A stretch of 64,000 bases of DNA from an uncultured Nitrososphaerales archaeon (GCA_963695855.1 CAVOHZ010000010.1:480001-544000), one strand, 5' to 3'; shown: positions 1 through 19,708, counted from the stretch's first letter. Numbers and translations are program-made. Notes: generated by a model not told the origin, from the letters alone.

Positions 1-1033
1 CCTCTGATAGGACTACCCTCACTATCTGATTTTCAGTATCTATTTCAACAACTGTAATTGCAGTTACCGACGAACTAAATCCAGGGTCAATACCTACACC
101 ATGTAAACAACCGGAATTGATAGATAAGTCTCTGTATTTCTCTCCTAATTCTATAGCGTCTTCAATGTCTACTAGACTGAATATGTTACCTATATGGCCT
201 GTATATTGGAGATTGTATTCTCTTTCGAATGATGGCGAGATTTTGGCCTTTTCAATATCTTCTGTTGAATATATTTTATCCAATCCATACCTGTAGTCTA
301 ATTTGATTCTTTTATAAAGACATTCGTTTACTGGTTCTTGTTCAATAGTTTGCATAAGTCCACCTGGAGCATTTGGTGTACTAACCATTACAATGAAAGG
401 GTTAGACTTTGCGATATAACGTTCTGATACTGCTCTTACATCTTCCTGTTGACCCTTACTAAAAAAGTCACATTCATCTAATAAAATGAATTTAGGATTA
501 TCTAGACTTCGGAAACTATCTACATGATGACTAGGAAAACTTTCGATAGTCACACCATTTAGTTTAACAAGGGTTTCTTTTGTATCAAAGTAAATATTTA
601 ATTGTTGAAATAAATTTTTTATTCTAGTTATTAATTTCTTTGAAAGTTCCCAATTAGGTCCAGTAACAAGTACAAATTGAGAACCCTGGTATGTATTATC
701 TTTAAGACATAGATAGACCATATATCTTAGGAATAATTCAGTAATACCTAATCCTGTAGCCTTCAATATCCATAAATGTTTACTATCTTTTAATAATTCT
801 ATAATCTGATTCTCATAATCAAATAATGGTTTCTCTAACCCATTTTTTTGGGGCATGCCTAATATATGATTAAAACAACATGTTCCATTAGTTGTCACAT
901 ATTGCTTATTATGCTCTACTTTATCCCATATGTAAAATGGTTTATCTTTGAAGATTTGTAGTCTTGGATTGCTAGTATTAGAATACTGGTTCTGATTCTG
1001 TGATATTAGTTTCTGTAAGTCTTTCCATCCCAT
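1..1033 (-). CDS. Terminase large subunit-like ATPase/nuclease, 3' part truncated by window edge (not in ORF track)
   Basis: Manual translation from ATG at 1033: MGWKDLQKLI...KPLFDYENQI...WILKATGLGITE (deviant Walker A)...FILLDECDF (Walker B)...MVSTPN (coupling motif)...FEREY...GVGIDPG (start of RNase H-like nuclease). The frame is open to position 1 and overlaps the 3' end of the TerS-like gene. Confidence 0.85.
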   Translation of the reverse strand, partial: MGWKDLQKLISQNQNQYSNTSNPRLQIFKDKPFYIWDKVEHNKQYVTTNGTCCFNHILGMPQKNGLEKPLFDYENQIIELLKDSKHLWILKATGLGITELFLRYMVYLCLKDNTYQGSQFVLVTGPNWELSKKLITRIKNLFQQLNIYFDTKETLVKLNGVTIESFPSHHVDSFRSLDNPKFILLDECDFFSKGQQEDVRAVSERYIAKSNPFIVMVSTPNAPGGLMQTIEQEPVNECLYKRIKLDYRYGLDKIYSTEDIEKAKISPSFEREYNLQYTGHIGNIFSLVDIEDAIELGEKYRDLSINSGCLHGVGIDPGFSSSVTAITVVEIDTENQIVRVVLSE

Positions 1034-1499
1034 TGTTATTATTTACCTTACCATTACCATTATTATTAGATAATTTGTTTTTGTGTACTTCTACGAATTT
1101 AATAGAATCCTGCAGTAATGAAGCGTTAGTTAATAGGTCCATTTTAGTTGAATAGGTATCCTTTATCAGTGATAACGATTGTAGTTTCTCTTTTGTATCC
1201 CCTTCCTTTTCTGCTTTTGCTGCTATAATCCAGGATTCCTTAATGATTTCTTCCAAACCCTGCAGACATTTGTTATATTCGTACGGTAACCGTTGCTGTA
1301 TATGATTCCTTATTATCTCTATTGCCTGTTCCTTCAATAGGTCCGCATCTCTTGAAATGGTAGCCTCACTTATCTGCAGCATCCTCGATATCTCTGCCTG
1401 TGAGTATCCCTTAACTGCTAACTCCTGGACCTTACTACGACGCCACTTGAGGCGTTCTTTCATCTGTGATTTTGGACCTTTCATCTTTTCATTAGCCAA
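978..1499 (-). CDS. HTH protein, probable terminase small subunit
   Basis: N-terminal HTH (GYSQAEISRMLQISEATISRD) followed by helical/coiled region; directly upstream of and overlapping TerL. Confidence 0.65.
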   Translation of the reverse strand: MANEKMKGPKSQMKERLKWRRSKVQELAVKGYSQAEISRMLQISEATISRDADLLKEQAIEIIRNHIQQRLPYEYNKCLQGLEEIIKESWIIAAKAEKEGDTKEKLQSLSLIKDTYSTKMDLLTNASLLQDSIKFVEVHKNKLSNNNGNGKVNNNNGMERLTETNITESEPVF

Positions 1500-1602
1500 C
1501 TCTTAATACTTGCATTTAGGTTAGTAACTATAATAAGTATAGTGGATTCAACTGCCAGGACAGAAGACACATTAAGGCGATTCATAGACATACCGTTAGT
1601 AT

Positions 1603-2031
1603 ATGATAATGGTAATGACATTTAATAAAAATATAATATTTGTACTGTTGATAGCAGCATCTATCTTTTTTAATATAGTACCTGCATTAGCAGTAGAAAC
1701 AGTAGACCGGTGTACATATTATGGCGGTACTTGGGACGACACCGATACCATCTGTAATTTTGATGACCCAGAAAAGAAAGCAGTGTATGAGGCCGCCTTC
1801 CAAGCATGGCTAGCAGAGTATGAAGACGTCAATCCAACAATACTACATCTATGTGAAAGTTACGGTGGTACTTGGGACACGATAAGTAATGACTGTGTTA
1901 TTTATGACCCAGAAAAGAAAGCCGCATATGAGATAGCATATGATGTCGCCTATCAAGAATGGAAAGCAGAGATAGAGAAATCAAATCAGGAAGTAATAGG
2001 CGGATACTGTGTATTTGCAGGATGTGATTAA
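1603..2031 (+). CDS. Secreted Cys-rich protein with two internal repeats
   Basis: Signal peptide ending ALA; two copies of CxxYGGTWD..C...DPEKKAxYExA. Confidence 0.75.
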   Translation: MIMVMTFNKNIIFVLLIAASIFFNIVPALAVETVDRCTYYGGTWDDTDTICNFDDPEKKAVYEAAFQAWLAEYEDVNPTILHLCESYGGTWDTISNDCVIYDPEKKAAYEIAYDVAYQEWKAEIEKSNQEVIGGYCVFAGCD

Positions 2032-2037
2032 ATAAAG

Positions 2038-2337
2038 TTGATGACCGAATTAAAAATGGTAACAACAGCAGTTGTGATGGTGGTGTTGTTAGTAATGCCT
2101 ATGTTTTTTAATATAGCATATGCAGAAACAGAATTTGCCAAACCAACACAACAACTATGTGAAGGCCGATACTATAACGGTACTTGGACTGGTACCGATT
2201 GTATTGAAATCCCTGATCCACAAAAGGAAGCAGAGTGGGAAGTATTGAAAGTAGTGGAAGCAATGGAAGCAGAGAGAATAGCAGAAGAATGGAAACGAGC
2301 ATGTATGCTACCTGGGTCGTGTACGTTCATCAAGTGA
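2038..2337 (+). CDS. Secreted Cys-rich paralogue with one copy of the same module
   Basis: Signal peptide ending AYA; CEGRYYNGTWTGTDC...DPQKEAEWE resembles the upstream repeats. Confidence 0.7.
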   Translation: MMTELKMVTTAVVMVVLLVMPMFFNIAYAETEFAKPTQQLCEGRYYNGTWTGTDCIEIPDPQKEAEWEVLKVVEAMEAERIAEEWKRACMLPGSCTFIK

Positions 2338-2344
2338 ATGCAGT

Positions 2345-2464
2345 ATGGCCATCATAAAAGTCGATGCCTTCAAGTGTAACGTCTGCGGCCACATCTGGAT
2401 CCCGTGCTGGTCCACGGTAATAGGTTCAAGTTGTTCGTGTACCATTAGCGATTTTTCCAAATAA
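2345..2464 (+). CDS. 39-aa Zn-ribbon-like microprotein, possibly truncated
   Basis: MAIIKVDAFKCNVCGHIWIPCW...; CxxCxHxW motif; starts 7 bp after the previous stop. Confidence 0.4.
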   Translation: MAIIKVDAFKCNVCGHIWIPCWSTVIGSSCSCTISDFSK

Positions 2465-2653
2465 TCTTAATTGTTGTCATTTTCTTACTATTCACTCTCC
2501 CAGATGTTATCTTTAAAGTCTACGTGAATACAAAAAGTTGTAAATTCAAAAGAACAAGCCTTACAATACTTTGCAGACTTCGACCATAAGGATTGCATGG
2601 TTAAGGCCTTTTATAACTCCAAACTAGAAGTACTATACAATTTTGTATTACCT

Positions 2654-2790
2654 ATATGACCATCTGGTACATATGACCGAATTTTCATTCCCATTTTTTT
2701 TAAATTATTATCATTCATGATTATCATCCATTTTTTTTACCATTCTCAAACTGGTCATATACACCAGATAGTCATATGACCTATATGACC
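2654..2790. repeat. Inverted repeat and ATATGACC iteron cluster flanking an AT-rich spacer (candidate replication origin)
   Basis: 25-bp arms 2654-2678 and 2753-2777 (22/25 complementary) around a 74-bp AT-rich spacer; ATATGACC at 2654, 2671, 2774 and 2783, and in reverse at 2753. Confidence 0.7.
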
Positions 2791-5037
2791 TCATGTCAAT
2801 ACCTCATTTCCACTGGAACTTTCTTCATCTTCTGTTCCAATTTTTGCAACAACATACTTTAGTGTCTTGGGTTTTAGGCTTACTGTTCTAACGTTCAAGG
2901 TCTCCCCTAACCTATCTATAATATCTTGAAGAGATTTATTGGTGTCAAGGGTCCATTTATCCTTCAAGTATTCTTTGATAACTGTTTTTCGTTCGGCTGC
3001 TTGCTTGCATAGTTCATGTACTGTAAATTCTACACCTGCATTTTCATGCAAAATAACATGAAATTCCTCAATTACTACGTCCCTGGGGTCCGATACACTA
3101 TCCACTATTGCGCCGTACTGTTGGAACATCAATTTCATAAGGTTCATTGTTTTGGTTGCTATCATGTCGTCAACCGTCCAGGACATGTTTAATTTGGCCT
3201 GTGCTTCTGCTATCCTCTGAATAAAGTCGAATGTTCTGTTAGAGGCTACACCCTTTAATTTCGCATTAACCCAGAATTGATTAAGTCGTTTTTGAGAATA
3301 ACCAGTCCATTTAGGTACAATACCTTTAACATGTTCCAGGTATTTATTCAGAAATCTATAGTTGTGTGGCTTCCTATTCTTTATCTTGGTTTTTTCTTCT
3401 GTGTAGTGAGTTAATTCCTCCTTAGTTTCAAAGTCAAAGAATGCATAAACCTGGTCGAACCTATTCAATAGATTTTTCTTTATTGGAATCTTTGAATTTG
3501 ATATTTTATCCTTGGAATCCCATGTCATATTTACGGGGTTGGTTGTTGCTATAACTGTAGTAGGTGCATCTATCTCAAAATGTCTGCTATATCTTTCCAG
3601 TGTACAACGGCCTTCCTCTACTATCTCATCAAAATACTTTTGGTCCTCATAATCCATTACTCCAATCTCGTTTATTACTACATGCGAATTCTTTGCAAGG
3701 ACTAGTACCCCATACGATACGGATAGACTGTTATCGTTATCTTTTTCTACAATTCCTATTAGAGATTTACCGTTAATTCCAGATGCAGTAACATATTTAG
3801 AATTAGGATTTATCCTTGTTGACTCTTTACCTAACACAGATTTGGAGGTACCCAGGTCTCCAACCAGTAACGTGTTTATCCTTCCCCTCCTACCGTTATC
3901 AATACCACTGATTTTATTTCCTCCAACTACAGAACGTAAAATACCTATCTTCTTATCATTATGACCTACTACATTGGGTGCAAACATAGAGACAACTATC
4001 TGTTCAAACGTCATTGGTTTAACGTAGTGTTTACATGCTGGACATTTAGGATATTTCTTAATTAGTTCAAAATCCTTCTTATATTTCTCATCACAGACAT
4101 CCTTCCATCTCTTGATAACATCCACGTCTTTTTCAGTTAATTGTATTTTCTCTTTGCTCCTTGATACTATGTTCCGGCTATGAAGTACATTGATTAGTTT
4201 TTTAGACCTCTCACCAGAACCTGGCTGAATTCTTATGTTTCCTCTTATATCTACAATTTCACCAGAAACTATATTATCAATTGCATCTCCATACAAAATG
4301 ACGTGAAGTCTATCATATTGGTCTTCGATATTTTCGATATCGTCTAACCATATTTTCTTGGCCTTTATGGTTTCTTTAGTTATTTCAAATCCTGTACTTT
4401 TACATCTGAAACATACAGACGTTGGTGAGTTTGTAGCAACACTGAAAATCTTGGGAAGATATTCTAATGGAAAATCATCAAAAGATTGGGAACCCTGGTT
4501 ATCACAGTCCAACGCAGCACATTTCCAATCCAACTTGGTTATAGCCTTGTATGTGATTGTTATTCCTGATATCCTACCTGTTACCAGTGCAGGCCCTTCC
4601 TCAGGTGTTCTGATTGCCTCTATAACAGATATAGGCCTATTTTCCTGTTCCTCACGTTCTTTTTGTTCTTTTTGTATTTGTTCCTGTATACTCTGATTTA
4701 ATTTGTAAATATTATATTCTTTAATAGTATGAATCATCTTTTCTTTGTTAATCTCTAAATGAAGAACTTCAATGATACAACCTGTGTCAAATGAATCAAT
4801 ATTATATTCTTCATCTAGTTTTTTGATAAGATATTCAATATTCTCGTTTTTTACATCGCCAAATTTATCAAATGTAATAGGGAATATTATTAATGGGATT
4901 TCGTTGTGTACCCCATTCAACTTCAAAAGGCCTTCATTTGATTCTCCATTAAAATCAAATCTTTCTATGGTTTCATCTTCTACTAGTCTGGGAGTAAGTT
5001 CCAGGGCAACAATAAATTCTTTAGTGGTAGTAGTCAT
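2791..5037 (-). CDS. mcm: MCM-family replicative helicase (element-encoded, divergent)
   Basis: Zn finger (CAALDC...CFRC), OB fold, FAPNVVGH..K, INTLLVGDLGTSKS (Walker A), VVINE (Walker B variant), ATTNP (sensor 1), LLNRFD (Arg finger), RIAEAQAKL. Confidence 0.9.
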   Translation of the reverse strand: MTTTTKEFIVALELTPRLVEDETIERFDFNGESNEGLLKLNGVHNEIPLIIFPITFDKFGDVKNENIEYLIKKLDEEYNIDSFDTGCIIEVLHLEINKEKMIHTIKEYNIYKLNQSIQEQIQKEQKEREEQENRPISVIEAIRTPEEGPALVTGRISGITITYKAITKLDWKCAALDCDNQGSQSFDDFPLEYLPKIFSVATNSPTSVCFRCKSTGFEITKETIKAKKIWLDDIENIEDQYDRLHVILYGDAIDNIVSGEIVDIRGNIRIQPGSGERSKKLINVLHSRNIVSRSKEKIQLTEKDVDVIKRWKDVCDEKYKKDFELIKKYPKCPACKHYVKPMTFEQIVVSMFAPNVVGHNDKKIGILRSVVGGNKISGIDNGRRGRINTLLVGDLGTSKSVLGKESTRINPNSKYVTASGINGKSLIGIVEKDNDNSLSVSYGVLVLAKNSHVVINEIGVMDYEDQKYFDEIVEEGRCTLERYSRHFEIDAPTTVIATTNPVNMTWDSKDKISNSKIPIKKNLLNRFDQVYAFFDFETKEELTHYTEEKTKIKNRKPHNYRFLNKYLEHVKGIVPKWTGYSQKRLNQFWVNAKLKGVASNRTFDFIQRIAEAQAKLNMSWTVDDMIATKTMNLMKLMFQQYGAIVDSVSDPRDVVIEEFHVILHENAGVEFTVHELCKQAAERKTVIKEYLKDKWTLDTNKSLQDIIDRLGETLNVRTVSLKPKTLKYVVAKIGTEDEESSSGNEVLT

Positions 5038-5354
5038 TGGAAAAATGTCTCCAACTTTTGAATTTTATCTAGAATTTTGTTTGTGTCTGATTTACAATTT
5101 GCGATTGATTTTTGTGTTGATTTAAGTTCTTCCTGCAGTATTTGATAGTCTGAATGTAGTATCCAACATGTCGAACATTTACATTTTTTTCTAGCAGTTG
5201 AATTATTTTCTAGAGCAAAACTTTTATGTTCTGCAGTTCCAATACAACCTGGAAGTTCATTAGTTCGTCTAGGTTGACCTTCTCTTTTCATGTAGTCATA
5301 GGTTCCGTCACCTGATTTTGTGGCGGGACTTTTGATCTTTTTATTTAATCTCAA
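5034..5354 (-). CDS. Small hypothetical protein (Cys/His cluster plus coiled coil) coupled to MCM
   Basis: Stop overlaps MCM start; CKCSTC..H followed by a heptad-like C-terminus. Start uncertain. Confidence 0.55.
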   Translation of the reverse strand: MRLNKKIKSPATKSGDGTYDYMKREGQPRRTNELPGCIGTAEHKSFALENNSTARKKCKCSTCWILHSDYQILQEELKSTQKSIANCKSDTNKILDKIQKLETFFQ

Positions 5355-5426
5355 AAAGTGTTACGCCTCCCGACAGATACAGATTTTGAATGCACTAAAG
5401 ATTTGTCAGTCACTACAGGCAAAGTA

Positions 5427-5588
5427 TTAAATCCTGTAGCCAACCAACGCCGAGAGGGATAGGAGTGTAATGATATTTTGAAGTTTTGTTAAATTTTGTG
5501 GAAATTTATGAATTTCTGTAAGCGTAGTTTGTGCGTAACTATTGATATCAGTACAAACCTTTAAAAATGAATATTTTATATCATCCAT
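5427..5588 (-). CDS. 53-aa hypothetical microprotein
   Basis: MDDIKYSF...VGYRI*, same strand as the replication module; no recognisable motif. Confidence 0.3.
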   Translation of the reverse strand: MDDIKYSFLKVCTDINSYAQTTLTEIHKFPQNLTKLQNIITLLSLSALVGYRI

Positions 5589-5669
5589 TTAGCGTTCGTC
5601 TCCGGTGTCTGCGTGGGATAATGCTTTTATGCTCGGCGGAGTGCTTGCCGCCCGGGCTACCTTTTATTA

Positions 5670-5855
5670 TCATTCCTGGGGACTAGTCTCCACTTTTTTT
5701 CTAAATTCTATTAGTTCATGAACCCTTTCGCTAAAGGTTTGATCCTTCCTGGTTTCAGAAACTAATTCGTTATAAACCTCAGGTCTTAACCCGATGTTTT
5801 TTCTGATTTGATGTTCTTTCAACAACATTATTTTCATATAGTGGTGTAAATTCAT
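5670..5855 (-). CDS. RHH/antitoxin-like DNA-binding protein
   Basis: RKNIGLRPEVYNELV...QTFSERVHELIE fits the beta-strand-helix-helix pattern of archaeal DUF217/CopG-like proteins. Confidence 0.6.
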   Translation of the reverse strand: MNLHHYMKIMLLKEHQIRKNIGLRPEVYNELVSETRKDQTFSERVHELIEFRKKVETSPQE

Positions 5856-6496
5856 TATTAATAAAACTTCTTTTACTCAAAAAATTATTACGCAACATAT
5901 TCAATTGGAGCACGATATGCATGAATGTCAGACCATCGAAAGGACATATCCTGAGGCTTAATACACATCGAAGACGTGTTTACTTTAATGACATCTGTTC
6001 CTGATGAAAGTAGGTGTACAAGCATACATCGAGAGGTGCGGTGAAAGAATAAGAACAATAATATAATATGTGCATGCTGCTTGTCCAATAATTTACAGAA
6101 AGATGGTCTTTACTGACCGTACGAAGTTTTCTTTTTTAAAGAATGATTCAATTACAAACCATGCACGGTATTCCATTATTCACATACCTCATGGAAGATA
6201 TGGTTTATGCCAATGTATCTATAATTTGTACTCTAGCATAGTTGTTCTATAAGAGAGATATAGCGTGAGTCAGTTGTACTGTGAATAACACAATACAGAA
6301 ACAACATCTATCGGATCTGGATAAGAAAATTTGGGGGTTTAAACGAGTACAATTTAGGAATATATTCTAGAGTATTAAAGGTTATTCATAATAATACATA
6401 CAGGAAAAGACAGGAGAGATTCATGAAGTTTCTTTGTGGTAGGTAGATGAAACATTCGAAAAATAAGAACAAATATTTTTTATACACTACGTCATG

Positions 6497-7738
6497 TTAT
6501 AACACAGGATTATTATCTAATTTTTCAACAGAATTTTTTAAGATATAAAAATATTTTGTTGGCACTATATCTCCGTCTTTTGTTAAATAAATTAAATTAA
6601 AATTCTGTGGAGGTGTATCAATATAATTCCAGTTCCAAAATGCCCAACCTTGTATATTTGATTTATTGAATTTATTTACAAAGAAATCTGATTCATTTTG
6701 AGTCAAGTCACTTTTATCAACATTTATTTTATTGGTATCTGTTTTATCTGTGGTACTAGTCTTATCTCTTATCACGTGGTTCCATTCTCCTACGTACAGG
6801 GGAACTCCTGCTAATTTAGAGACATTCTCGAGTAGTTCTAGCTTTTTTTCTTGATAATTATCTTTCATTGGGATACCATAAAGTGAGATTTTAAAAATCG
6901 ACTTGCTGTCTTTTGGGATAATTTTTACCATATTTTCAGACGTAAGATTAATAGTTGGATCGCCAAACTTTATGGGAATGGTCATATCTATTACTACTAT
7001 CTTCTTTGTTTGTTCCCTGATTTCATTAATCATAAAAGCGTAATATTTTCCAATTTTTGACCATTGATCTTCCGAAAAAATTTGCGGCTCGTTGAGAATC
7101 TCATATCCCAGGGTACTATTATGGTTATCAAGTAATCTGGCAATAGTTTTCAGGAAATTAGCCTGAAGAATCCATCCGTCTGTTTTATTATTCTCGTGCA
7201 CTATATTTCTATCCCACCAATTTGTCCACCATAGTTTAGTAGCATTCCCTGAGTTCTTTGTTTCTGAATTGTAGGGATAAATATTTTTATCAAAGAGGAA
7301 AGACGGGAATCCAGTACCTCTTTTTTCATCAAACCAACTTGACGTATGAAATTGATGATTATCATATATTATATTCAATCCCCATTTGTCTGCAAGAGAT
7401 GCCATACTTTCTAATTCATCTAAAAATAATTTCCGATTATTTTCATATGCTTCCCAATATAACACATATCTAACATGGTTCAATCCCATACTTTTAATAA
7501 GCTTGAAGCTATCATTATAATAGCCATCCATAATGGTCACATTAGGAAATCTTTCGTAATTCAAACTGGTATATTTTCCTTTCATGTTTACCCCAAGAAG
7601 TTTTTCACCATTTTCAGGATATGAATATGCGTTTTTAATTTCTAAAGTGTAAGAAAAAGAAATTGTTAGTATAACAATAAGTAATACTGCTAGATATTGT
7701 AAATTTATTTTATTCTTTAACATTTTTAAAACACACAT
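6497..7738 (-). CDS. Secreted glycoside hydrolase family 5 (cellulase-like)
   Basis: N-terminal TM/signal; GLNHVR, DNHQ, GYEILNEP (acid/base), LYVGEW (nucleophile), GWAFW. Confidence 0.85.
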   Translation of the reverse strand: MCVLKMLKNKINLQYLAVLLIVILTISFSYTLEIKNAYSYPENGEKLLGVNMKGKYTSLNYERFPNVTIMDGYYNDSFKLIKSMGLNHVRYVLYWEAYENNRKLFLDELESMASLADKWGLNIIYDNHQFHTSSWFDEKRGTGFPSFLFDKNIYPYNSETKNSGNATKLWWTNWWDRNIVHENNKTDGWILQANFLKTIARLLDNHNSTLGYEILNEPQIFSEDQWSKIGKYYAFMINEIREQTKKIVVIDMTIPIKFGDPTINLTSENMVKIIPKDSKSIFKISLYGIPMKDNYQEKKLELLENVSKLAGVPLYVGEWNHVIRDKTSTTDKTDTNKINVDKSDLTQNESDFFVNKFNKSNIQGWAFWNWNYIDTPPQNFNLIYLTKDGDIVPTKYFYILKNSVEKLDNNPVL

Positions 7739-7851
7739 GCTATACTTTTTAAGTAATAAATGTTATTAATAAAAATTATTAACGAGTATAGTACATTAAC
7801 AACAGAAATAGGTGAATAAAGTTTAATTATTTTAAAAAAATTTAAAATATC

Positions 7852-8454
7852 TTATGTTATTTGACCTCTGATTTCGCCATCAGGATTAGATTCGCTATGA
7901 ACATTCACGTAGGTGTCTCCACTTTCTATTAAAGTGATCAGATCAGAAATATTCTTTCCTTTCAGGGGTCCTTGCAAATCCAAGCTATTGATTGTACCAC
8001 TTGCGAGGGAATTTTGTTTGTTTCCATTAATTGTTATAGAGTTAGATTCTATTTCAGAAATTTTTGTTGTATTTTGATTTTTAAATATGTCTTCCTTTAC
8101 ATTATATATACTCACCAATACATCTCCATTTTCACCCAAGTTACCTTTATGAATATGGATCCCTGTTATTTTTGGAACATCTAGAACATTAATTTGATAA
8201 TAAAGAGTTTTGTTGTCATCTAGTAATTCAAAAGACGTGCTTCCGATACCAGTTGTTTTAATGGGTGGTACCTGTTCGTTTCCAGTTAATGTCGCCGTAT
8301 ATTTATATTTTAGACTGTTGCTTTCATCTAGGTTTTTTCCGCTTTGCCCTTGACCATAAGCTAAGATGTTAGTATTTGATAAAAGCAATAACATCAATAT
8401 TCCCACAGAAAAAAATACTGTGGATATCACTAGACGTGTTTTATTTTTGTCCAT
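7852..8454 (-). CDS. CHRD domain protein, secreted
   Basis: LTGNEQVPP, HIHKG, YVNVHS..PDGEIRGQI. Confidence 0.9.
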   Translation of the reverse strand: MDKNKTRLVISTVFFSVGILMLLLLSNTNILAYGQGQSGKNLDESNSLKYKYTATLTGNEQVPPIKTTGIGSTSFELLDDNKTLYYQINVLDVPKITGIHIHKGNLGENGDVLVSIYNVKEDIFKNQNTTKISEIESNSITINGNKQNSLASGTINSLDLQGPLKGKNISDLITLIESGDTYVNVHSESNPDGEIRGQIT

Positions 8455-8598
8455 ATCAAATAGATTATAGGAATATATTTAAAAATTATTGAACTTTGTT
8501 AACCCCTATATTTCGATTGTAAGGTTCGTTTAGTATCAGTTAACGTAGTTTACTAATGGTTATATAATTATTAGTATACACATATTAATGATTTAAAA

Positions 8599-8817
8599 AT
8601 GTCTACAATCTCATATTTTAATAAATTGGTCCATAAAGGAGTTAGGACAAAAGATGGAAACATTTTAGGCAACGTAATAGCGGCAGATAGTGCATATATC
8701 ACTGTACGGGGAAGGCGAATCTTCCAATTTCCTGTTCAATTCATTGATCTATATAACGACACACAAGTTTTCTTGAGTATAGATACAAATGAATTATACA
8801 AGTACAAAATTTTTTAG
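8599..8817 (+). CDS. PRC-barrel-like small protein
   Basis: HKGVRTKDG..LGNV pattern. Confidence 0.6.
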   Translation: MSTISYFNKLVHKGVRTKDGNILGNVIAADSAYITVRGRRIFQFPVQFIDLYNDTQVFLSIDTNELYKYKIF

Positions 8818-9191
8818 GGATTTACACTTTTATTTTATTTTTGTATTTGTATAATAGGATTAATAGTAGAAGTGGTTAATAGTAGAATAAAAAGAATACA
8901 AAGTAAGTTAAGACTTTGTTCTTATACTTAAATATTTAACCTACTTCCACGGGGACAAATTTAAATGAAAGAATTAAGATGAGGAATTACCAATGATGTT
9001 ACTATGTTCTCTCTGCTCATTGGACTCTAAATATAAGATATCTTAATTTCGATTAAACTCCTCACTCTCATACCATACGTAATATGTTAATTTTTGACCT
9101 AGCCTAAAGATAAAGGGAATTGGAATGCAATAAAGATATCAATATAGTTATGCCAATTATTATAAGGAAATACTGACTTTATTATTAATCT

Positions 9192-9362
9192 TCATATATT
9201 TTGAATATAAAGTTTATTTTTTCTGCAAATAGGACATTTGCCAATATCACATTCACCTTTTAAAATAGTTGCACACCAATAACACGAGTTACAAAATACA
9301 AATTCACAATTATTTCTATTATAAAATTTTTTATTCACAGTAATAGTTTTATTATGATACAT
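9192..9362 (-). CDS. 56-aa Zn-finger microprotein (not in ORF track)
   Basis: MYHNK...FVFCNSCYWCATILK...KCPICRKNKLYIQNI*; two CxxC pairs. Confidence 0.6.
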   Translation of the reverse strand: MYHNKTITVNKKFYNRNNCEFVFCNSCYWCATILKGECDIGKCPICRKNKLYIQNI

Positions 9363-9765
9363 TGTCACTCAATAGTTACTTCTTTCTTTAATTATATATC
9401 TATTAGTTAACTACGTTAACATAGTACAAAATTAGAAATAAGAATATTTGATTATTTTATAAAGTACATTGATTTCAATAAAATCTTCAAAAAAAGATTA
9501 TGATTTACAGAAAAACATTAACGTTGATAATTCTCAGTTAGGATAATTATTCTTAATCGTCCAGTCTAATATACAAAAAGGTGATCGTCAGATCTTGTCA
9601 ATTTGGTTTCTTATCTTGTCTGGGATATGTCAAATGGTTCTAAAATCATTTATTGATATTGTTAAGGGATTATTACGAGAAATCAATTTCGTGTTCGTAA
9701 CTATTATAGATCCACAAGATGGGTTCACAGACTACAGCTAGATATACAACTCACGAACAAAATAT

Positions 9766-10404
9766 TCATATTAAATTCTTGAATCCTTCTACTACATATT
9801 GAACAGCAATTGCAGCTATTATTATTGCAAATACTCGCGAAATAATTAAAGAACCTCGATTACCCAATAATTTATAGATTGGATTTATAAGACGAAATAC
9901 AAAATACGTCATCAATAAAACTATTATTATAGAGATTATGGTTACTGCAAATCCACTAGTTTGAAATGTTATTATCACAGTTGTGATGGCTCCAGGACCA
10001 GCCAATAATGGAAATGCAATAGGTACAACACCAGTTTCGTCTGTAGCTGAAGTTTTATTGAATCTCCATTCACCATAGGTTAACAGCTCTATCGCGATTA
10101 TAAATAAAAGGGCACCTCCAGCAATCATAAAACTAAATATTGTGATCCCAAAAATATCTAGAATTTGTTTACCAGCTATTCCAAATATTATTAATAAAAT
10201 TAAAGCAGTTAAAATTGCTGTCTTTGAAACAAGTTGTCTATCTTTTATTTCCAGTTTCTGTGTGAGAGAAATGAAGATTGGAATATTTCCGATAGGATTT
10301 ATAACTACGAAAAGCGCAATGATTGATTTTAATAGATCGCCATGAAATGCATTCAAAAAACTACCTATTTCAATTAAAAAAGAACTAAACACATCTGATA
10401 ACAA
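9766..10404 (-). CDS. MarC family integral membrane protein
   Basis: LFVVINPIGNIPIF, IAGGALLF, VVPIAFPLLAGPGAIT. Confidence 0.92.
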   Translation of the reverse strand: MLSDVFSSFLIEIGSFLNAFHGDLLKSIIALFVVINPIGNIPIFISLTQKLEIKDRQLVSKTAILTALILLIIFGIAGKQILDIFGITIFSFMIAGGALLFIIAIELLTYGEWRFNKTSATDETGVVPIAFPLLAGPGAITTVIITFQTSGFAVTIISIIIVLLMTYFVFRLINPIYKLLGNRGSLIISRVFAIIIAAIAVQYVVEGFKNLI

Positions 10405-10951
10405 GGTTAACTGAAATATAATTTCCTATTTGCTATTTTTAAATATTATGTCGGATACACGCTAAATTATTTACTAGATTTTGTTTGACACAATATAGAC
10501 AAATTTAATAAATTTAGTCAAAATGTTCATTTAAGTAATACTAAAAAAACTATATATCGTAATACTGGAATGTGTTAAATATGTAAACAGGCTAAAACAT
10601 ACCTAATTAACTTACAAATTCCATCTATAGATATACAGAATATGATTGAATTATGCATTTATTTTATTTATCTCCATAACTGATTCATATCACATGGATA
10701 GCAAGAGTGGATTTTCACATTTTTGTTTGCGTATTTCTAATTCTGCATCATGTTCAACTTATTGATTGCTTTTTTGTTTTCATTAAATAAAAATCTAAGT
10801 CTTAACTGAATTCTTTCCAATTTTTGTAAATAATAATCTATTAAAATAAAAAAATAGAATAGAACGGCAATAATGATTAATATAATTATCAGAAGAATTG
10901 GAATATAGTATGGTTATACAATTAACATTGTTCAACCATATTAATAAATAA

Positions 10952-11203
10952 GTGGCCAATAACTATTCCATGGTCACATATAAAAACGACAAAAATAATA
11001 TCGCAAACCTTAGAGACATTACAACACGACATGTGAAAGATATTTTAAGAGGTAGTTCCACGTTATTTAACAAGTTCATGCAATATTTTTATAGTTATTA
11101 TAAAGATATATGTCAAAATTATTCTGAATTTATGAAAGAAATTGATCAACAAAATACTTCGAATAATTCTTACATCATGTTTTCAAAGAGGTCAGATTAT
11201 TAG
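10952..11203 (+). CDS. Hypothetical protein
   Basis: ORF only. Confidence 0.35.
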   Translation: MANNYSMVTYKNDKNNIANLRDITTRHVKDILRGSSTLFNKFMQYFYSYYKDICQNYSEFMKEIDQQNTSNNSYIMFSKRSDY

Positions 11204-11567
11204 AAATGAATATTACAGCAACGGAAATTTCTCGAGTTCTCATTGCTAAAATAAGTGGGTGTAAGGAGAGCAACAAGAAAATAATATATTCTTTTGTGGA
11301 TCAATATCATAGCTTATGTTTAGATACAAGGATATTTTAGCATCTCAACTAGAAGCATGTGAGAATTTGCTTTTAGCAACTCCAGGTAATGAAGATAAAC
11401 AAATAATTGAAAATGAAATTTCGGAATTAAATAGATATCTTTAAATTTATCAGTTACTAAACAAAGTGTTTATTATAATTACCAGACATAACTTTGTTAT
11501 TAAAAAATATTTGAAATCATCAAATCAGATATAGGTATAAATAAAATAAAGAAATCACAGAAAATAA

Positions 11568-11855
11568 CTAGAAATTATCACTGAATTGTCGTGTACGTTC
11601 ATCGACCTGATCTTGTGGTTTTTTGGTGGTTTTCTGATAGATATCTTTATGTTCTCTCTTATCATACTCTTTTTCATGCTCTTCTCTTACATGATGAAGT
11701 CTATCCTTTTCATGAATGAACTCTTTTCCACAATTATCGCATTTTAAAATGGCATGATGATGAACATGTCTAGTGTGATCGATTAATTCTTGATAGGTAT
11801 GGAATTTCTCATCATCTAATTCACAGTTATATTTGTCATGGTGAAATAAATTCAT
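11568..11855 (-). CDS. C2H2 zinc-finger protein (two fingers)
   Basis: CELD...H...H and CDNCGKEF...HH..EH. Confidence 0.75.
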   Translation of the reverse strand: MNLFHHDKYNCELDDEKFHTYQELIDHTRHVHHHAILKCDNCGKEFIHEKDRLHHVREEHEKEYDKREHKDIYQKTTKKPQDQVDERTRQFSDNF

Positions 11856-12035
11856 TAAAAATCATATGAATTATCAATTATTAAAAACTATCTGAAAGAT
11901 AGACATTTGATTTTAACTTTTATGATTTAATATATTATTACAAAGAAGAGCTAAAAATATAGAGAGAATTTTGACAAGAGTACAGAATATATGTTGGTAA
12001 ATCACTATACGAGAACAAAGGATATTGGAGATAAA

Positions 12036-12203
12036 TCATCCTCCAGATGGCATGTCTTGGTCCCATGTATTTTGTTGATAATTGTCAATAAGTTCATTTA
12101 TTAATTCATCTAACTCGATATTTTTTTTTCGTCTTTGCATTAAATCATCCTTTAATGACCCTAGCCTTCTTAAAGTAAGATCCTGAATCTGAATATTAAC
12201 CAT
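12036..12203 (-). CDS. 55-aa RHH-like small protein (not in ORF track)
   Basis: MVNIQIQDLTLRRLGSLK...ELDELINELID...PSGG*. Confidence 0.5.
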   Translation of the reverse strand: MVNIQIQDLTLRRLGSLKDDLMQRRKKNIELDELINELIDNYQQNTWDQDMPSGG

Positions 12204-12308
12204 GTGATAATACTTGCCGGTTAACCAAAGATATCTTTAACTGAAATTAATGTGATGAAAATAAAAGAAGGTATTTTAGATGAGATTAAAATCTAAATAT
12301 TTGGGAAT

Positions 12309-12542
12309 ATGAAGGTGATCAAAATCGTAAAATCAGAAAAGACATATCATTCGCTTGTTTATAATGATTTGGTTACAGAAGTTATAGATGAGGCAAGTTT
12401 TAAAGATTTGTTTGAACTAAATTTTTATCTTCAAACTCTTCAAAAAAAACTAGAATTTGAAGATGTTTTGTTAATTATCCATGATAAAATCAATAATTCA
12501 GTAGATTTGAAAAGGAGTACGGAAGACATTTTTCTTGAATGA
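12309..12542 (+). CDS. Hypothetical protein
   Basis: ATG ORF with normal composition. Confidence 0.55.
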   Translation: MKVIKIVKSEKTYHSLVYNDLVTEVIDEASFKDLFELNFYLQTLQKKLEFEDVLLIIHDKINNSVDLKRSTEDIFLE

Positions 12543-12618
12543 TAAATCATTTATAAATAAATCGCAAACATGAAACAAAGAATTAATAAGATTATTCAGT
12601 TTAACGTTGCATGTAGAA

Positions 12619-12816
12619 ATGGGTGGCGTATCAAAAAGAGGGAGAATTTTTTTGGGAAAAAGGATAGGTCCCAAATCTGCAAGACGTGCGAGAAAACCAT
12701 TGAGTGCGGACTGGACCACTGGAAGGGTGCTTAACAGACATTTTGTTAATAGAAGAAAAAACAAGAAACCTACAAGAGGAGATAGAAATCAAAGCTATTC
12801 ACATTATTCATATTGA
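12619..12816 (+). CDS. Highly basic small protein
   Basis: MGGVSKRGRIFLGKRIGPKSARRARKP...; very Arg/Lys-rich; ATG at 12619 preferred. Confidence 0.6.
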   Translation: MGGVSKRGRIFLGKRIGPKSARRARKPLSADWTTGRVLNRHFVNRRKNKKPTRGDRNQSYSHYSY

Positions 12817-12910
12817 TTAGGCATCATTATCAAAAGAACGGGTTAAGGATAGATCCATAATTAGATATATTGGAAATCCACTAGGTACTTAAGACTGAAA
12901 TAAAGAAAGA

Positions 12911-14620
12911 ATGAATCTAATAAATTATTTCCCATTTAATACTATAAGAGAAAGACAAAAGAATGTCATTCAAAAAATAGAAGAAGAGATAGAAAATGGA
13001 ACCAAATATATATTTTTGGAGGCGCCTACAGGATTTGGAAAGAGTCCTATCGCCATTGCATTAGCAAGGTACCTCGGCAGTTCTCATATTTGTACTTCAA
13101 CAAAGGACTTACAAAACCAATATTCCAAGGATTTTCCCTTTGTAAAGGAAGCAAAGGGAAAGAGAAATTTTATGTGTCTGTTAAAACAGAATGAAGGAAT
13201 AAAGGAAACTTGTGAATATGGACCTTGTCAGAAAGAAGAAGAATTTGACTGCAATTATAAGACGAGGCTACTGGATTACAAGGTAAGTGGTCTTGGAACA
13301 AAATTTGAACATGCAGGAATAGGTCAGATGGAAAAGATGAAATATGTAAGAAAACATGATTCTCAACTCCGATTTGAGAAAATTGAATGGGAACCATGTT
13401 ATTATTTTCATCAGAAATGGATAGCAATAAAATCATCCCATACCATTTACAACTATAAATATTTCTTATCAGATCTATATTTCTCTAACAATATCGTGAA
13501 AAGAGATTTGATAGTTTTTGACGAGGTCCATAATATAGAATCAGAAATTTCTGATTTCAAGAGTTTCACAATAAATGGGGATCTTATTTCAAAAATGTTT
13601 CCAACTCTAAAATTGCCTCATAAAAAAGAAGAAGAGATAGAAACATGGGTCGATTTTTGTGAAGATTATAGAGACCATATTCTTGATTTTATAGAAGATA
13701 CCCAGATGGCTATAGAAAGAAATGATTTAAGAGAACCTCATACAGAGAAAAATCTAATAGATTCCATCAACAGAGAAAAAAATATTTCCCAAGTTCTAAA
13801 CGACATGAAAAGGAACAAGTCCAATTGGTTGGTAACAAATATCGATAGATCTGTAGATAATTTTATACGAAAAATAACAATTACGCCTTTGGATATTGCA
13901 AACTATTTTAAAGAAATTCTTGAAAATAGTTCTTACGGATTGTTCATGAGTGCGACTATTCTAAACAAAGATTATTTGTGTAAAATTTCTGGTCTTCCTG
14001 AAGATAAAATTGCCTTTATCAGAATAAAAGAATCTGACTTCCCAAAAGAAAATAGACCCATACATCTAATGAATGTAGCTTGGCTAAATAGCAAAACAAT
14101 AGCATCAAGTCTTCCCCCCATCGCAAAAGCTATTGATAATATAATGAGTATTCACAAAAAAGAGAAGGGAATTATTCATACCACATCCTACTTTCAATTG
14201 AACTATATCAAGGATAACCTGAGTACACATAATAAGATGAGATTGATAGAAACCGGACCAAATATGGATAGAATCGAAATATTACAAAAACACTTTAAAA
14301 ATAAGAATCCCACTGTCCTGATTTCCCCTTCCCTATACTATGGACTTGATCTTAAAGACGATTTATCTAGATTTCAAATAATCACTAAAGTTCCATATCC
14401 AGATCTAAGTGACAGGAAAGTATCAACAATGAGAAAAAAAGACATGAATTGGTATCTTTGGAATACTGTTATTAAAGTAGTACAAGCGTATGGAAGAAGC
14501 GTTAGGAGTAAAGAAGATCATGCTAGCACATATATTTTAGATAGTAACATAAGTTATCTTTTAAAAAATGCCAAAGAAATGTTTCCTCAATGGTTCACCG
14601 AAGCAATTATCCAAAGATAA
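12911..14620 (+). CDS. XPD/Rad3/DinG-family Fe-S ATP-dependent DNA helicase
   Basis: Q motif RERQ, EAPTGFGKS, Cys cluster, DEVH, MSAT, QAYGRSVR. Confidence 0.9.
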   Translation: MNLINYFPFNTIRERQKNVIQKIEEEIENGTKYIFLEAPTGFGKSPIAIALARYLGSSHICTSTKDLQNQYSKDFPFVKEAKGKRNFMCLLKQNEGIKETCEYGPCQKEEEFDCNYKTRLLDYKVSGLGTKFEHAGIGQMEKMKYVRKHDSQLRFEKIEWEPCYYFHQKWIAIKSSHTIYNYKYFLSDLYFSNNIVKRDLIVFDEVHNIESEISDFKSFTINGDLISKMFPTLKLPHKKEEEIETWVDFCEDYRDHILDFIEDTQMAIERNDLREPHTEKNLIDSINREKNISQVLNDMKRNKSNWLVTNIDRSVDNFIRKITITPLDIANYFKEILENSSYGLFMSATILNKDYLCKISGLPEDKIAFIRIKESDFPKENRPIHLMNVAWLNSKTIASSLPPIAKAIDNIMSIHKKEKGIIHTTSYFQLNYIKDNLSTHNKMRLIETGPNMDRIEILQKHFKNKNPTVLISPSLYYGLDLKDDLSRFQIITKVPYPDLSDRKVSTMRKKDMNWYLWNTVIKVVQAYGRSVRSKEDHASTYILDSNISYLLKNAKEMFPQWFTEAIIQR

Positions 14621-14665
14621 AAAATAAAAGATAAAAAAAGTATATAAGATTTTCATAGTAAAAGG

Positions 14666-15802
14666 TCATTCTATAAAATTTAAAATCGTACTCTGTCCAG
14701 AATTATCTTTAAGATCCAACACTTTAATACCCAATCTTCTTATGTGAATATCTTGATTAACTGAAATAAAATCATTTAAAATAATATCAGCATTAATAAA
14801 TAACTCATGGGGATCTTGGCTAGGAATCCTTAATGTTCTAGATTTTGTTTTAATTTCAAGCGTTTCACTTATAAAAATTAAAGCCAACGTTTTAAAAAAT
14901 AAATTTCTTTGAATTAATTTTTCCAAAATCGAGTTACATAACTGGTGTAGTTCAAATTTAAAATATTCGACATCATGAGAATTTTCTTTTAAAGTTTTTA
15001 TTCTAACAATCTGTTTTATGTCATTATCGCTTTTAACAGGATCGTAATTTATGCCACGTGCGGAATTGCATAAATAATTAGAACAAGCAGATCCAAATTC
15101 TTTTTTAAGCAAGTCCATGTTAGCAACAGAAATATCTTTGAAAGTCTTTATCCCCATTTGATAAAGTTTTTTTTTATTTTTTGGCCCTATTCCAGGAATC
15201 AAACTAATGTCAAGATCTGAAATCAAATTTATAGATTTTTTTGGTTCGATAATAAATAAACCACTTGGCTTTTTATATTTTGACCCTATTTTTGCTAAGA
15301 GTTTATTATAAGATATGCCTATCGAACAAGAGATATGAATTTTTTCATATAGGTTTGTCTTTAACATTTGAGCAATTTCTACAGCCTTATCAAAATCTCC
15401 ATTTAAAAATTCAGTAAGGTCTACGTAACATTCATCAACGCCAACGACTTCGCATTTATCCACTACGGATTTAATAATCTCCATGGCATTGTTAGAAACT
15501 TCAGAATAATATTTTTGATCGATCGGAAGAAAGACCGGATTATCCAGAGAACTTAATTTTGACTTGGCTTCCCTAATTGAGATTCCAGACTTTACACCAT
15601 ATTTTCTTGCTACATAATTAGACGTGCTAACTACTCCGCTATCACTTGTTCTTCCAGAATACACGCACACTATTATTGGAGAATTTTTAATGGATGGATT
15701 TCTGATTTCCTCACATTGAGCAAAAAAATAATCAAAATCAATGTGAAATATAATTCTGATATCACTATTTTCAGATAATGGATCAAAATATCGGAATGTC
15801 AT
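14666..15802 (-). CDS. dinB: Y-family DNA polymerase IV (Dpo4/DinB)
   Basis: HIDFDYFFAQ, SNYVARKYGV, GVDECYVD, KLLAKI..K.KP. Confidence 0.93.
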   Translation of the reverse strand: MTFRYFDPLSENSDIRIIFHIDFDYFFAQCEEIRNPSIKNSPIIVCVYSGRTSDSGVVSTSNYVARKYGVKSGISIREAKSKLSSLDNPVFLPIDQKYYSEVSNNAMEIIKSVVDKCEVVGVDECYVDLTEFLNGDFDKAVEIAQMLKTNLYEKIHISCSIGISYNKLLAKIGSKYKKPSGLFIIEPKKSINLISDLDISLIPGIGPKNKKKLYQMGIKTFKDISVANMDLLKKEFGSACSNYLCNSARGINYDPVKSDNDIKQIVRIKTLKENSHDVEYFKFELHQLCNSILEKLIQRNLFFKTLALIFISETLEIKTKSRTLRIPSQDPHELFINADIILNDFISVNQDIHIRRLGIKVLDLKDNSGQSTILNFIE

Positions 15803-15919
15803 AAAATTAATTCATTCATTAATATAAATAAAAGTCACTGTTATAATATTTGTGGGGATAATTACTCATGTATCCGGGTTTAGATATACTTTTTTAGAAC
15901 CAAACCAATTGATCTATCA

Positions 15920-16168
15920 TTGGATGATCCCATTACAATTAACCAAGATGGTATCAAATTAAAACCTGAAATAATGATAAAAGAAGAATTGTATCATTGT
16001 ATTTTTCAAAATAGAGTCTTCCTTTTTTACAAAGATAACGACGAGATCATTCATTGTTATGAGGTAGGTGATCCCAATATCATTACCAAAATTAGGGAGA
16101 ACCCCAATAGCATTAGCGATATTTTCAATGAAATAGTCGAAGAGTCTAACAAAAATATCAAGAGTTGA
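15920..16168 (+). CDS. Hypothetical protein
   Basis: TTG-start ORF upstream of alba, same strand. Confidence 0.6.
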   Translation: MDDPITINQDGIKLKPEIMIKEELYHCIFQNRVFLFYKDNDEIIHCYEVGDPNIITKIRENPNSISDIFNEIVEESNKNIKS

Positions 16169-16205
16169 AAACATTATATTCCACATTAGATGAGTTATTA
16201 TAAGC

Positions 16206-16508
16206 ATGACCACAAATATTGAAAATACTGGAAATGTAAAGAGAAGTAATGAGATTTTTATTGGCAAAAAGCCGTTGATGACCTATGTCACAGCAACATT
16301 AGTACAGCTGGCCAACGAACCGCTTGTAGTCATCAAAGCAAGAGGCAAAAGTATCCCAAGAGCTGTAGATGTATCTCAAATCATTGTGAAACGAATGGAT
16401 ACACTGGGATATAAGGTAGATTCTGTGAAAATAGGTTCCGAATCAGTAAAATCCGAGGACGGAAGAATCAGAAATGTTTCAACCATCGAAGTAGCTGTTT
16501 CTAGATAG
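16206..16508 (+). CDS. albA: DNA/RNA-binding protein Alba
   Basis: IFIGKKPLMTYV, IKARGKSI.RAVDV, RNVSTIE. Confidence 0.95.
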   Translation: MTTNIENTGNVKRSNEIFIGKKPLMTYVTATLVQLANEPLVVIKARGKSIPRAVDVSQIIVKRMDTLGYKVDSVKIGSESVKSEDGRIRNVSTIEVAVSR

Positions 16509-16519
16509 CTGTTTCTAGA
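16492..16519. repeat. Perfect 14-bp tandem duplication across the alba stop codon
   Basis: TAGCTGTTTCTAGA at 16492-16505 and 16506-16519. Confidence 0.9.
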
Positions 16520-18860: not shown

Positions 18861-18873
18861 AACGAGGTATAAA

Positions 18874-19611: not shown

Positions 19612-19708
19612 AAATAAATGAGTTTCATAAATAGATTAAATCTCATGGTTATCCTGTAAGAAAACAAAAAATATAATAGATAATTAAAGTGCTTTAAATT
19701 ACACTTAA

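Follow-up and report, generated by a model that had tools for sequence, protein, structure and literature searches.

A capsid-less integrated element with an MCM helicase and a chimeric, very probably nuclease-deficient TerL in a Nitrososphaeraceae archaeon

We analysed a 64,000-nucleotide stretch of DNA from an uncultured Nitrososphaerales archaeon (G000:C10:480001-544000; hereafter the window) whose left end holds part of an integrated element that combines an MCM helicase with TerS-like and TerL-like terminase genes; the DNA further left was examined as L009 (C10:466001-486000). We hold with high confidence that this is a capsid-less integrated element, and its TerL is very probably a chimera deficient in nuclease. 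The element belongs to an integrase-bearing, capsid-less family, abundant in the Nitrososphaeraceae, that carries TerS-TerL together with interchangeable replication modules. Our best overall explanation, to which we assign a probability of about 0.5, is a cryptic element of this family, whose intact members would spread in the manner of satellites and of which the present copy is nuclease-broken.

From left to right, the genes of the element encode a tyrosine integrase, a Toprim protein, a Zn-ribbon protein, a secreted protein, the chimeric TerL and a TerS-like helix-turn-helix (HTH) protein, followed by two further secreted proteins, MCM, a 106-aa open reading frame (ORF) and a ribbon-helix-helix (RHH) protein (Table 1). 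ORF calls with Pfam and PHROGs searches confirmed that the TerL-like ORF and the HTH, MCM and RHH genes all lie on the minus strand, at the coordinates given in an earlier note made from the sequence alone; the overlap of the HTH gene with terL and its spacing of about 1.3 kb from MCM were confirmed likewise. The HTH-to-MCM interval measures 1.29 kb, and the two small Cys-rich secreted proteins are encoded there, on the plus strand. G+C content is 0.33-0.39 across the element and 0.26-0.31 in the flanks.

The element is a 12,332-bp insertion, one repeat copy counted (C10:473637-485958), with window bases 1-5,958 as its right half, and it is inserted in an IS1595-family insertion sequence (IS), at a point about 50 bp from the left end of a degraded copy. 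The same 10-bp direct repeat stands at both junctions (Table 1). The 50 bp upstream of the integrase gene (L009 7584-7637) and the DNA from window position 5959 both match elsewhere in the genome, and at three places (C8:485448-485817, C8:481813-482184 and C1:80006-80367) the two flanks are contiguous with an overlap of 10-11 bp; in these uninterrupted IS copies the overlap of the flank matches equals the direct repeat. Full copies of the IS, which is about 1.04 kb long and has PF12762 (IS1595-type transposase) matches inside, were found by blastn at C8:485400-486560, C8:481142-482182 and C1:79374-80367. We set the borders of the element because its flanks join in these uninterrupted IS paralogues, and not because of the 10-bp repeat. 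The right end so obtained, window 5958, lies about 100 bp beyond the limit of 5855 that had been proposed earlier.

A generic repeat search for att sites returned nothing usable, and no Rfam family matched in L009. With no tRNA in window 1-20000, L009 or L104, we rejected a tRNA attachment site for this element. A soil-metagenome contig of the same repeat family joins both flanks while skipping 12,353 bp (from 1617 to 13971 on L104). Between the two parts stand 21 other letters, and for this reason we read the joint as a paralogous IS copy and rejected it as an excision product. Public DNA runs with the element comprise four low-depth soil-metagenome contig sets from one study (word shares 0.09-0.25), and no RNA run with the element was present among the sequencing runs listed.

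That the locus is an integrated element and not a vertically inherited one, as had been proposed, is supported by the direct repeats, the integrase and the interrupted IS, and by its identities to relatives: in the 80 other family genomes the best matches reach 53% for MCM and 59% for the C-terminal part of the chimera, as against 83-87% DNA identity in four same-genus genomes for the cytochrome P450 gene left of the integrase, which from this conservation is a host gene. Pfam and PHROG scans turned up no conjugation genes, no search having been aimed at them. With an integrase, defined borders and no virion genes, the locus is a cryptic integrated element in the sense of Krupovic et al. (2019).

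Two further observations concern the IS. A 44-bp fragment of its left end (C10:249285-249328) stops exactly at the insertion position of the window element, which suggests that this target site was used twice or that a deletion occurred there. The copies at C8:481142-482182 and C8:485400-486560 are inverted and 99.7% identical, and enclose about 3.2 kb in an arrangement like that of a composite transposon, and stops interrupt their transposase frames.

Recognisable virion genes are absent from the element and, as far as our queries reached, from the genome. The earlier note had recognised that a full morphogenetic module might follow terL beyond the window; annotation of the left DNA found none, with no portal, capsid, protease or tail gene among the L009 ORFs downstream of terL, and no virion family in Pfam or PHROGs matched any of the element's 11 ORFs. 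Across the genome, which is 99.87% complete, PF05065 (capsid) and PF04860 (portal) had 0 matches while positive controls worked; PF06074 (portal) also had no match, its controls having matched nowhere either. We took 44 IMG/VR loci with TerLs 28-52% identical over the best aligned segment, and used their 618 ORFs as tblastn queries; matches in the genome came from TerL, TerS-like proteins, MCM and a few enzymes only, with no portal or capsid. The virion genes of provirus L092, from a complete genome of another genus, likewise matched nothing in the genome by tblastn.

These results bear on the option, also raised earlier, of a very compact complete provirus with capsid genes too divergent to recognise. 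Five element ORFs without a family match could accommodate it: the 142-aa secreted protein has no family in Pfam except a chance-level COX4 match, the 99-aa secreted protein none in Pfam or PHROGs, and the 106-aa ORF nothing in Pfam, PHROGs, NCBIfam or PADLOC. However, the unannotated ORFs are of only 99-331 aa, three have signal-peptide-like N-termini, and the longest has more than 30 chromosomal paralogues. Moreover, 12.3 kb less the integrase, Toprim, MCM and 828-aa ORFs leaves no room for portal, capsid, protease and tail, and portal and capsid genes, which the same tools pick up in related viruses, were not found here. No morphogenetic module follows terL, which rules out an ordinary provirus, and we regard a compact provirus as exceedingly improbable.

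The terL ORF extends left of the window to a total of 828 codons, and its two parts have different relatives. The phrog_2 'terminase large subunit' profile matches residues ~62-344 only (E 1.2e-16 for the part in the window, 2.3e-16 for the full ORF) and stops at profile position 508, compared with 561-584 in intact paralogues. In tblastn and blastp comparisons within the genome, paralogous TerLs of 474-482 aa align to residues 1-348 only, which comprise the TerL ATPase and the first nuclease strands. From about residue 328-349 to residue 828 the protein instead matches a helicase-like P-loop family of 589-731 aa, with a C2H2-type Zn finger at the end; these C-terminal ~480 aa are fused in frame to the TerL part.

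Among 27 TerLs, viral ones included, the invariant positions are K..G.G, DE, STP, D316, D373 and D463/D466 (A6 numbering), the Asp residues being presumably catalytic. The chimera retains KATGLGIT, LLDECDFF and VSTPN, which we take to be the Walker A-type, Walker B and coupling motifs, and keeps only the first invariant Asp (GIDPG); the stretch with D373 and D463/D466 is replaced from residue 349. The window copy has a TerL ATPase domain and no complete RNase-H-like nuclease domain. The TerL that the earlier note took for a working packaging gene is a chimera of a TerL ATPase and a helicase-like protein, without most of the nuclease domain. It is also without the Walker A and B motifs of its helicase-like partner. 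Members of the partner family have a Walker A motif (APTSEGKT in the closest members), a long coiled-coil insert and a Walker-B-like strand, ILVFLEPP, followed by '...PILSHD.EIE...RGWP.CIFCSAKDES...'. We call the family helicase-like because in sibling elements its gene adjoins one for a protein of ~360 aa whose C-terminal domain is a PriX primase (PF18689, E down to 2.5e-14; NF033412, E 2.9e-21); its function is inferred from this gene context and from a protein-atlas lead, PF27228, present in 11-16% of members in archaeal and viral clusters. PDB sequence searches gave nothing significant for the helicase-like protein (685 aa; alignment A5) or for alignment A3.

The junction falls between ...VVLSEEHDK and REMQYDF..., where TerLs read ...LSEEHDK... 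and helicase-like proteins ...ILSHDK/E..., and points to a fusion by illegitimate recombination at the short 'LS(EE)HDK' similarity. The C-terminal part is most closely related to four genes of normal length in one same-genus genome (54-59% identity). In the closest of all, G037:C51, the helicase-like gene precedes TerL, and the window order, TerL followed by the helicase-like part, is not derivable from it by a single deletion.

The fusion could be a functional new protein, in which a TerL-type ATPase motor is joined to the DNA-binding C-terminal domains and Zn finger of a replication protein. The ORF remains open over 828 codons in DNA of about 35% G+C, the Walker A-like, Walker B and STP motifs are intact, and the fusion point coincides with the ATPase/nuclease boundary, a site of recombination in paralogues C and E as well. 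Yet the helicase-like part has neither Walker A nor Walker B, the TerL part is without two of its three nuclease Asp positions, and we found no second TerL::helicase-like fusion among the matches listed from 81 Nitrososphaeraceae genomes, and so no evidence of retention by selection. We consider this explanation very improbable.

Paralogues C and E (L012 11844-13283 and L014 11504-12928) are 62% identical over their whole length, with nuclease halves that are identical and ATPase halves that differ strongly. This pattern is a sign of recent recombination, or of gene conversion, at the very domain boundary where the window fusion lies, and the two cases together imply that recombination at the ATPase/nuclease boundary is recurrent.

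The gene that overlaps the start of terL is, by position and overlap, a candidate TerS gene. Pfam matches of its 173-aa product to Trp_repressor, Sigma70_r4_2, HTH_38 and Terminase_5 are all below cut-off, and among protein clusters it has many Nitrososphaerota look-alikes and one viral HTH_23 cluster. We compared the neighbourhoods of 26 TerL loci, picked for long contigs and strong matches and including those of this genome. In 13 of them TerL has an HTH gene of the window type upstream, and in 4 a second TerS-like type. The ORF that precedes TerL in the capsid-encoding L027 gives a weak profile match to the window type (E 8.7e-4), and the second type, found in siblings C, D and E described below, is clearly homologous to the ORF upstream of viral-contig TerLs (E down to 2.6e-21).

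The element MCM qualifies as an MCM helicase, with an AAA-lid match below cut-off, and retains a Walker A motif (GDLGTSKS), the clade-typical 'INE' Walker B, the NRFD Arg-finger region and the N-terminal Cys pairs. It is 26.6% identical to the host MCM (C10:1642994-1645063), and its 47 relatives in the database, 26-64% identical, all fall in small clusters. Upstream of MCM there is indeed an RHH gene, as had been noted, and its PF02697 match is weak; the 106-aa ORF stands between the two genes. The joining of MCM to TerS-TerL, the central claim of the earlier note, is no fixed architecture of the family but one of many mosaic arrangements. Among the 26 loci, MCM occurs within ±10 kb of TerL in 3: the window, L073, which has an integrase, MCM and an intact 495-aa TerL, and L093 (G041:C19:461847-481846), which has MCM, a PolB-like protein (phrog_262, E 2e-30), a TerS-like protein, TerL and an integrase. 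Neither L073 nor L093 has recognised virion genes. In the fetched DNA of the 12 closest MCM loci in relatives there was no TerL; six of these loci have an integrase and two a PriX-type primase.

In seven IMG/VR contigs (L036, L037, L043, L048, L053, L061 and L066) an MCM gene is located about 7-10 kb upstream of a related TerL, so that putative tailed viruses, too, combine MCM with this TerL family. The identity of the MCMs in these contigs is 27-29% to the host MCM and 21-25% to that of the element.

The TerL family has at least 12 loci in the genome by DNA and protein searches. Four of the copies, A (482 aa), C (479 aa), E (474 aa) and D (443 aa), are intact, the TerL of sibling B is split by a stop, and the loci other than A-E and the window chimera are fragments. 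Beyond this genome, 59 of 81 Nitrososphaeraceae genomes, from 17 of 18 genera, have a family match at E <= 1e-10; these tallies include two genomes flagged unpublished, G077 and G035. There are up to ~20 TerL matches per genome, many with stops, and intact copies of 474-513 aa are common across 17 genera. The ratio of nonsynonymous to synonymous substitution rates (dN/dS) between paralogues is 0.09-0.17 where dS is unsaturated (A-B, A-D and B-D); for the N-terminal part of the window TerL, dN is 0.24-0.28 and dS is saturated. These ratios show, as estimated from the sequences, purifying selection on the family TerL.

Annotation of the five sibling loci covered 104 ORFs in PHROGs and 62 in Pfam. 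A tyrosine integrase, a gene in the TerS position and TerL are present in every one of them; A, B, C and E also have a helicase-like/P-loop protein and a PriX primase, and D has an SNF2-like helicase-methyltransferase instead. Neither PHROGs nor Pfam recognised a virion gene in any of the five, and an NCBIfam search added PriX and XerA-type matches only. Sibling D (C10:1677952-1703156, ~25.2 kb) is flanked by 36-bp repeats at a tRNA-Val gene, and sibling B (C10:1773056-1795020, ~21.9 kb), which carries ParB-methyltransferase genes, by 23-bp repeats resembling a tRNA 3' end.

Related TerLs also occur in viruses that encode capsids. In the IMG/VR loci L027, L062 and L039, TerL is followed by a portal gene (Mu-type PF06074 in L027 and L062, phrog_9232 in L039) and then by an HK97-type capsid gene with a long N-terminal extension (phrog_267/544; PF05065 weak). 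Provirus L092 has the same TerL-portal-capsid layout. We built a maximum-likelihood tree of 44 TerLs, which remained of 55 collected sequences once identical ones had been removed; the chimera and copies below 420 aa or above 560 aa were not included. In this tree, 16 genomic capsid-less copies and 2 IMG/VR rows are separated from the other 26 rows by a branch with a value of 100 in the SH-like approximate likelihood ratio test (SH-aLRT). All four TerL rows with a recognised capsid gene, each of which also has a portal match, belong to the group of 26.

Such viruses raise the alternative that the locus is the relic of a head-tailed provirus whose morphogenetic genes were deleted, MCM and integrase remaining beside a TerS-TerL pair that is a functionless leftover. 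This is consistent with the loss of the nuclease domain from the window TerL, with the split TerL of sibling B and the at least six further loci in the genome that are fragments with stops, with the portal and capsid genes beside related TerLs in L027, L062, L039 and L092, and with the several IMG/VR contigs that have MCM upstream of a related TerL; in the available text of PMC6563490 it is also the reading given for NitKor-E1, a similar element discussed below. A relic does not, however, readily explain a clean 12.3-kb insertion with an intact integrase in place of a ragged remnant, nor five siblings without virion genes, four of which share the same compact replication and TerS-TerL layout, in a pattern that L073, L093 and others repeat. 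The intact TerLs common across 17 genera, with dN/dS of 0.09-0.17 between paralogues, and the grouping of capsid-less TerLs apart from capsid-encoding ones also argue against it, and we judge a relic unlikely.

In the explanation that we favour, a capsid-less family with satellite-type spread, the integrase would excise and integrate the unit, and MCM, with RHH as its regulator, would drive episomal replication by recruiting the host replisome. In intact members, TerS-TerL would recognise and cut element concatemers and pump them into the procapsids of a co-infecting tailed helper virus. In the present copy, recombination would have swapped the TerL nuclease domain for the tail of a helicase-like gene; having lost that domain it should be incapable of cutting concatemers, and judging by its sequence it is probably packaging-defective, and may either be decaying or be served in trans by the four intact TerL paralogues. 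Because no excised form, RNA data or helper was found, we propose satellite-type use of the terminase by the family only tentatively. Somewhat more doubtful is the broader proposal of an old and prolific capsid-less lineage with its own TerS and TerL, swapping primase-helicase, MCM and MCM plus PolB modules, whose members are satellites that take whole procapsids and tails of tailed archaeal viruses; the window copy would then be a recombinant casualty of exchange at the TerL ATPase/nuclease boundary.

Several points weigh against satellite-type spread of a capsid-less family. Bona fide viruses and proviruses with related TerLs (L092, L027, L062 and L039) make a provirus origin certain, and provirus decay would give the same broken TerLs as we observe: the disabled window copy, the split sibling B and the many fragments. 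The 'capsid-less' TerL clade includes IMG/VR contigs of 45 and 64 kb whose large unknown ORFs could be virion genes, L086 has weak protease-like matches, and the tree that defines the clade came from a quick search and is rooted at midpoint only. The TerL assignment comes from one broad PHROG profile and synteny, PDB sequence searches having given nothing significant (A6). The 10-bp repeat is not significant alone, nearby chance repeats of 11-14 bp outranking it in a scripted search of this A+T-rich DNA. No circular (back-joint) or excised form appeared in the four soil-metagenome sets, where depth is mostly 0-3; PF05065, PF04860 and tblastn with viral ORFs found no helper virus or provirus in the genome; and nothing links the family to virions.

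The same data allow a role for the terminase pair that serves the element or host without virions, such as the resolution of replication concatemers or a defence-like interference with an infecting tailed virus, whose DNA the pair might compete for or cut wrongly. Purifying selection on TerL in elements without capsid genes would fit it, as would the absence of a helper provirus from the genome and the varied cargo, including the ParB-methyltransferase genes of sibling B. Against it, PADLOC gave no match for 12 ORFs except a chance-level HTH, and the order and overlap of TerS and TerL are those of packaging operons; we know of no terminase with a concatemer-resolving or defence-like role of this kind. 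We regard such a role as improbable.

Among bacterial satellites, the Staphylococcus aureus pathogenicity islands and other phage-inducible chromosomal islands (SaPI/PICI), the capsid-forming islands (cf-PICI; characterised in 10.1101/2025.02.15.638363) and P4 are integrase-bearing islands of ~10-15 kb with their own replication and some packaging genes, which use the capsids or tails of helper phages. SaPIs are known to encode TerS only, cf-PICIs encode terminase and capsid genes, and P4 is not known to encode a terminase. A satellite with TerS and TerL and without capsid genes would represent another division of labour. The archaeal satellites pSSVx/pSSVi and the haloarchaeal SRCEs are parasites of spindle-shaped viruses, with an AAA+ ATPase, a spindle capsid protein or both, and Asgard NMV2S has a helicase-primase and Cas4, with no terminase mentioned in the available text (10.1101/2025.02.15.638363, 10.64898/2026.08.12.739948). 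These satellites share with the window element plasmid-like replication and an incomplete morphogenetic module; no TerS-TerL is described for them in those texts.

Among known cases the nearest is NitKor-E1 of Ca. Nitrosopumilus koreensis AR1 (Krupovic et al. 2019, PMC6563490), likewise a thaumarchaeal element with a tyrosine integrase, adjacent TerS-TerL and, as the available text has it, no other Caudovirales-like gene; it was classed as a cryptic integrated element and not as a provirus, and the function of its terminase was called 'enigmatic'. The likeness lies in the gene content described. NitKor-E1 is a single marine Nitrosopumilus case with VapBC and a PD-(D/E)XK endonuclease, and no MCM is mentioned in the text available; the window element, in contrast, has a soil Nitrososphaeraceae host, MCM, Toprim and a chimeric TerL, and is one of at least 12 loci. 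NitGar-E6, NitEve-E3 and ThaMY3-E2 are cryptic integrated elements of Thaumarchaeota with MCM (PMC6563490) and resemble the window element in integrase and in MCM recruited as replication protein, as do our 12 closest MCM loci; no terminase is reported for them in the accessible part of that source, whereas the window element has a TerS-like gene and a TerL remnant 1.3 kb from MCM. The same source lists Nvie-Pro1, NCAV2-Pro1 and CalSub-Pro as head-tailed proviruses of Nitrososphaeria. Nitrososphaeria head-tailed viruses and proviruses share with the element the TerL family (33-49% identity) and a gene in the TerS position upstream of TerL, but carry portal, HK97-type capsid and tail genes after TerL, which the element does not.

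A full-text literature search for 'NitKor-E1' returned the original paper only, and one for Nitrososphaeraceae, terminase and mobile genetic elements returned one preprint, in which such loci are treated as proviruses; the supplementary files of both papers may list family members. The preprint, of 2023 and on soil nitrifiers (10.1101/2023.12.02.569724), reports 1,101 'proviruses' in 212 Nitrososphaeria genomes, and places most TerLs of viruses of soil ammonia-oxidising archaea (AOA) in one cluster with provirus-derived TerLs. New in the present work are a form of the family that has MCM, precise borders within an IS, and a chimeric TerL without its nuclease. Terminases are treated as a hallmark of tailed viruses, and automated pipelines label such loci 'proviruses'. 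If most soil-AOA TerL loci are capsid-less, provirus counts and virus-host inferences for a key group of nitrifiers are inflated, and a large family of candidate archaeal tailed-virus satellites becomes available for testing. If the satellite lineage is real, its division of labour is undescribed for any satellite, and these would be the first archaeal tailed-virus satellites found in many genomes. The gain from this locus itself is modest, a clear example of element recombination and decay.

Table 1. Features of the element and its right border. Positions refer to the window unless prefixed L009 or C10.
Feature	Position	Strand	Remarks
Tyrosine integrase, 445 aa	start 26 bp right of left repeat copy		PF00589 E 3e-9; phrog_1 E 4e-14
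Toprim (topoisomerase-VI-A-like) protein, 357 aa	between integrase and Zn-ribbon genes		phrog_6247 'DNA topoisomerase' E 2e-41; no Pfam match
Zn-ribbon protein, 100 aa	between Toprim and 331-aa secreted-protein genes		
Secreted protein, 331 aa	L009 11382-12377		next to terL, downstream; family with >30 tblastn matches around the chromosome
Chimeric TerL ORF, 5' 344 codons	1..1033	-	full ORF G000:C10:478547-481033 = L009 12547-15033, 828 aa
TerS-like HTH gene, 173 aa	978..1499	-	56-nt overlap with terL start; sub-threshold HTH matches
Small secreted Cys-rich repeat protein (cargo), 142 aa	1603..2031	+	N-terminal hydrophobic segment; internal 141-nt repeats
Small secreted protein (cargo), 99 aa	2038..2337	+	related to the 1603-2031 gene; common 48-nt repeat
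MCM helicase, mobile-element clade, 748 aa	2791..5037	-	PF00493 E 1e-31; phrog_10371 E 7e-50
106-aa ORF, Cys/His-rich	5034..5354	-	3' end overlaps MCM start
RHH/VapB-like small DNA-binding protein, 61 aa	5670..5855	-	PF02697 E 1.8e-5, 25.9 bits against a cut-off of 27.9
Right 10-bp direct repeat TAATACACAT	5959..5968	.	left copy L009 7627-7636 = C10:473627-473636
Right remainder of degraded IS1595-family copy	5959..6486	+	blastn to full IS copies

The family of the 331-aa secreted protein has a conserved N-terminal part of ~150 aa, and several of its members lie within or beside TerL elements. In the flanking host DNA, an inverted duplicate of ~0.75 kb with 91-92% identity (L009 593-1318, C10:466602-467334, and window 7815-8815) takes in an ORF of 72-74 aa and part of a CHRD-domain gene. 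Its two copies enclose ~20 kb with the element, the P450 gene and an NHL-repeat gene, and could be the mark of an inversion or a segmental duplication. A repeat of ~1 kb at L009 5022-6016 has at least 12 copies in the genome and many more, at 70-72% identity, in G089, a genome of the same genus; no ORF in this copy reaches 70 aa, and the copy adjoins an exact 55-bp tandem duplication (L009 4947-5056).

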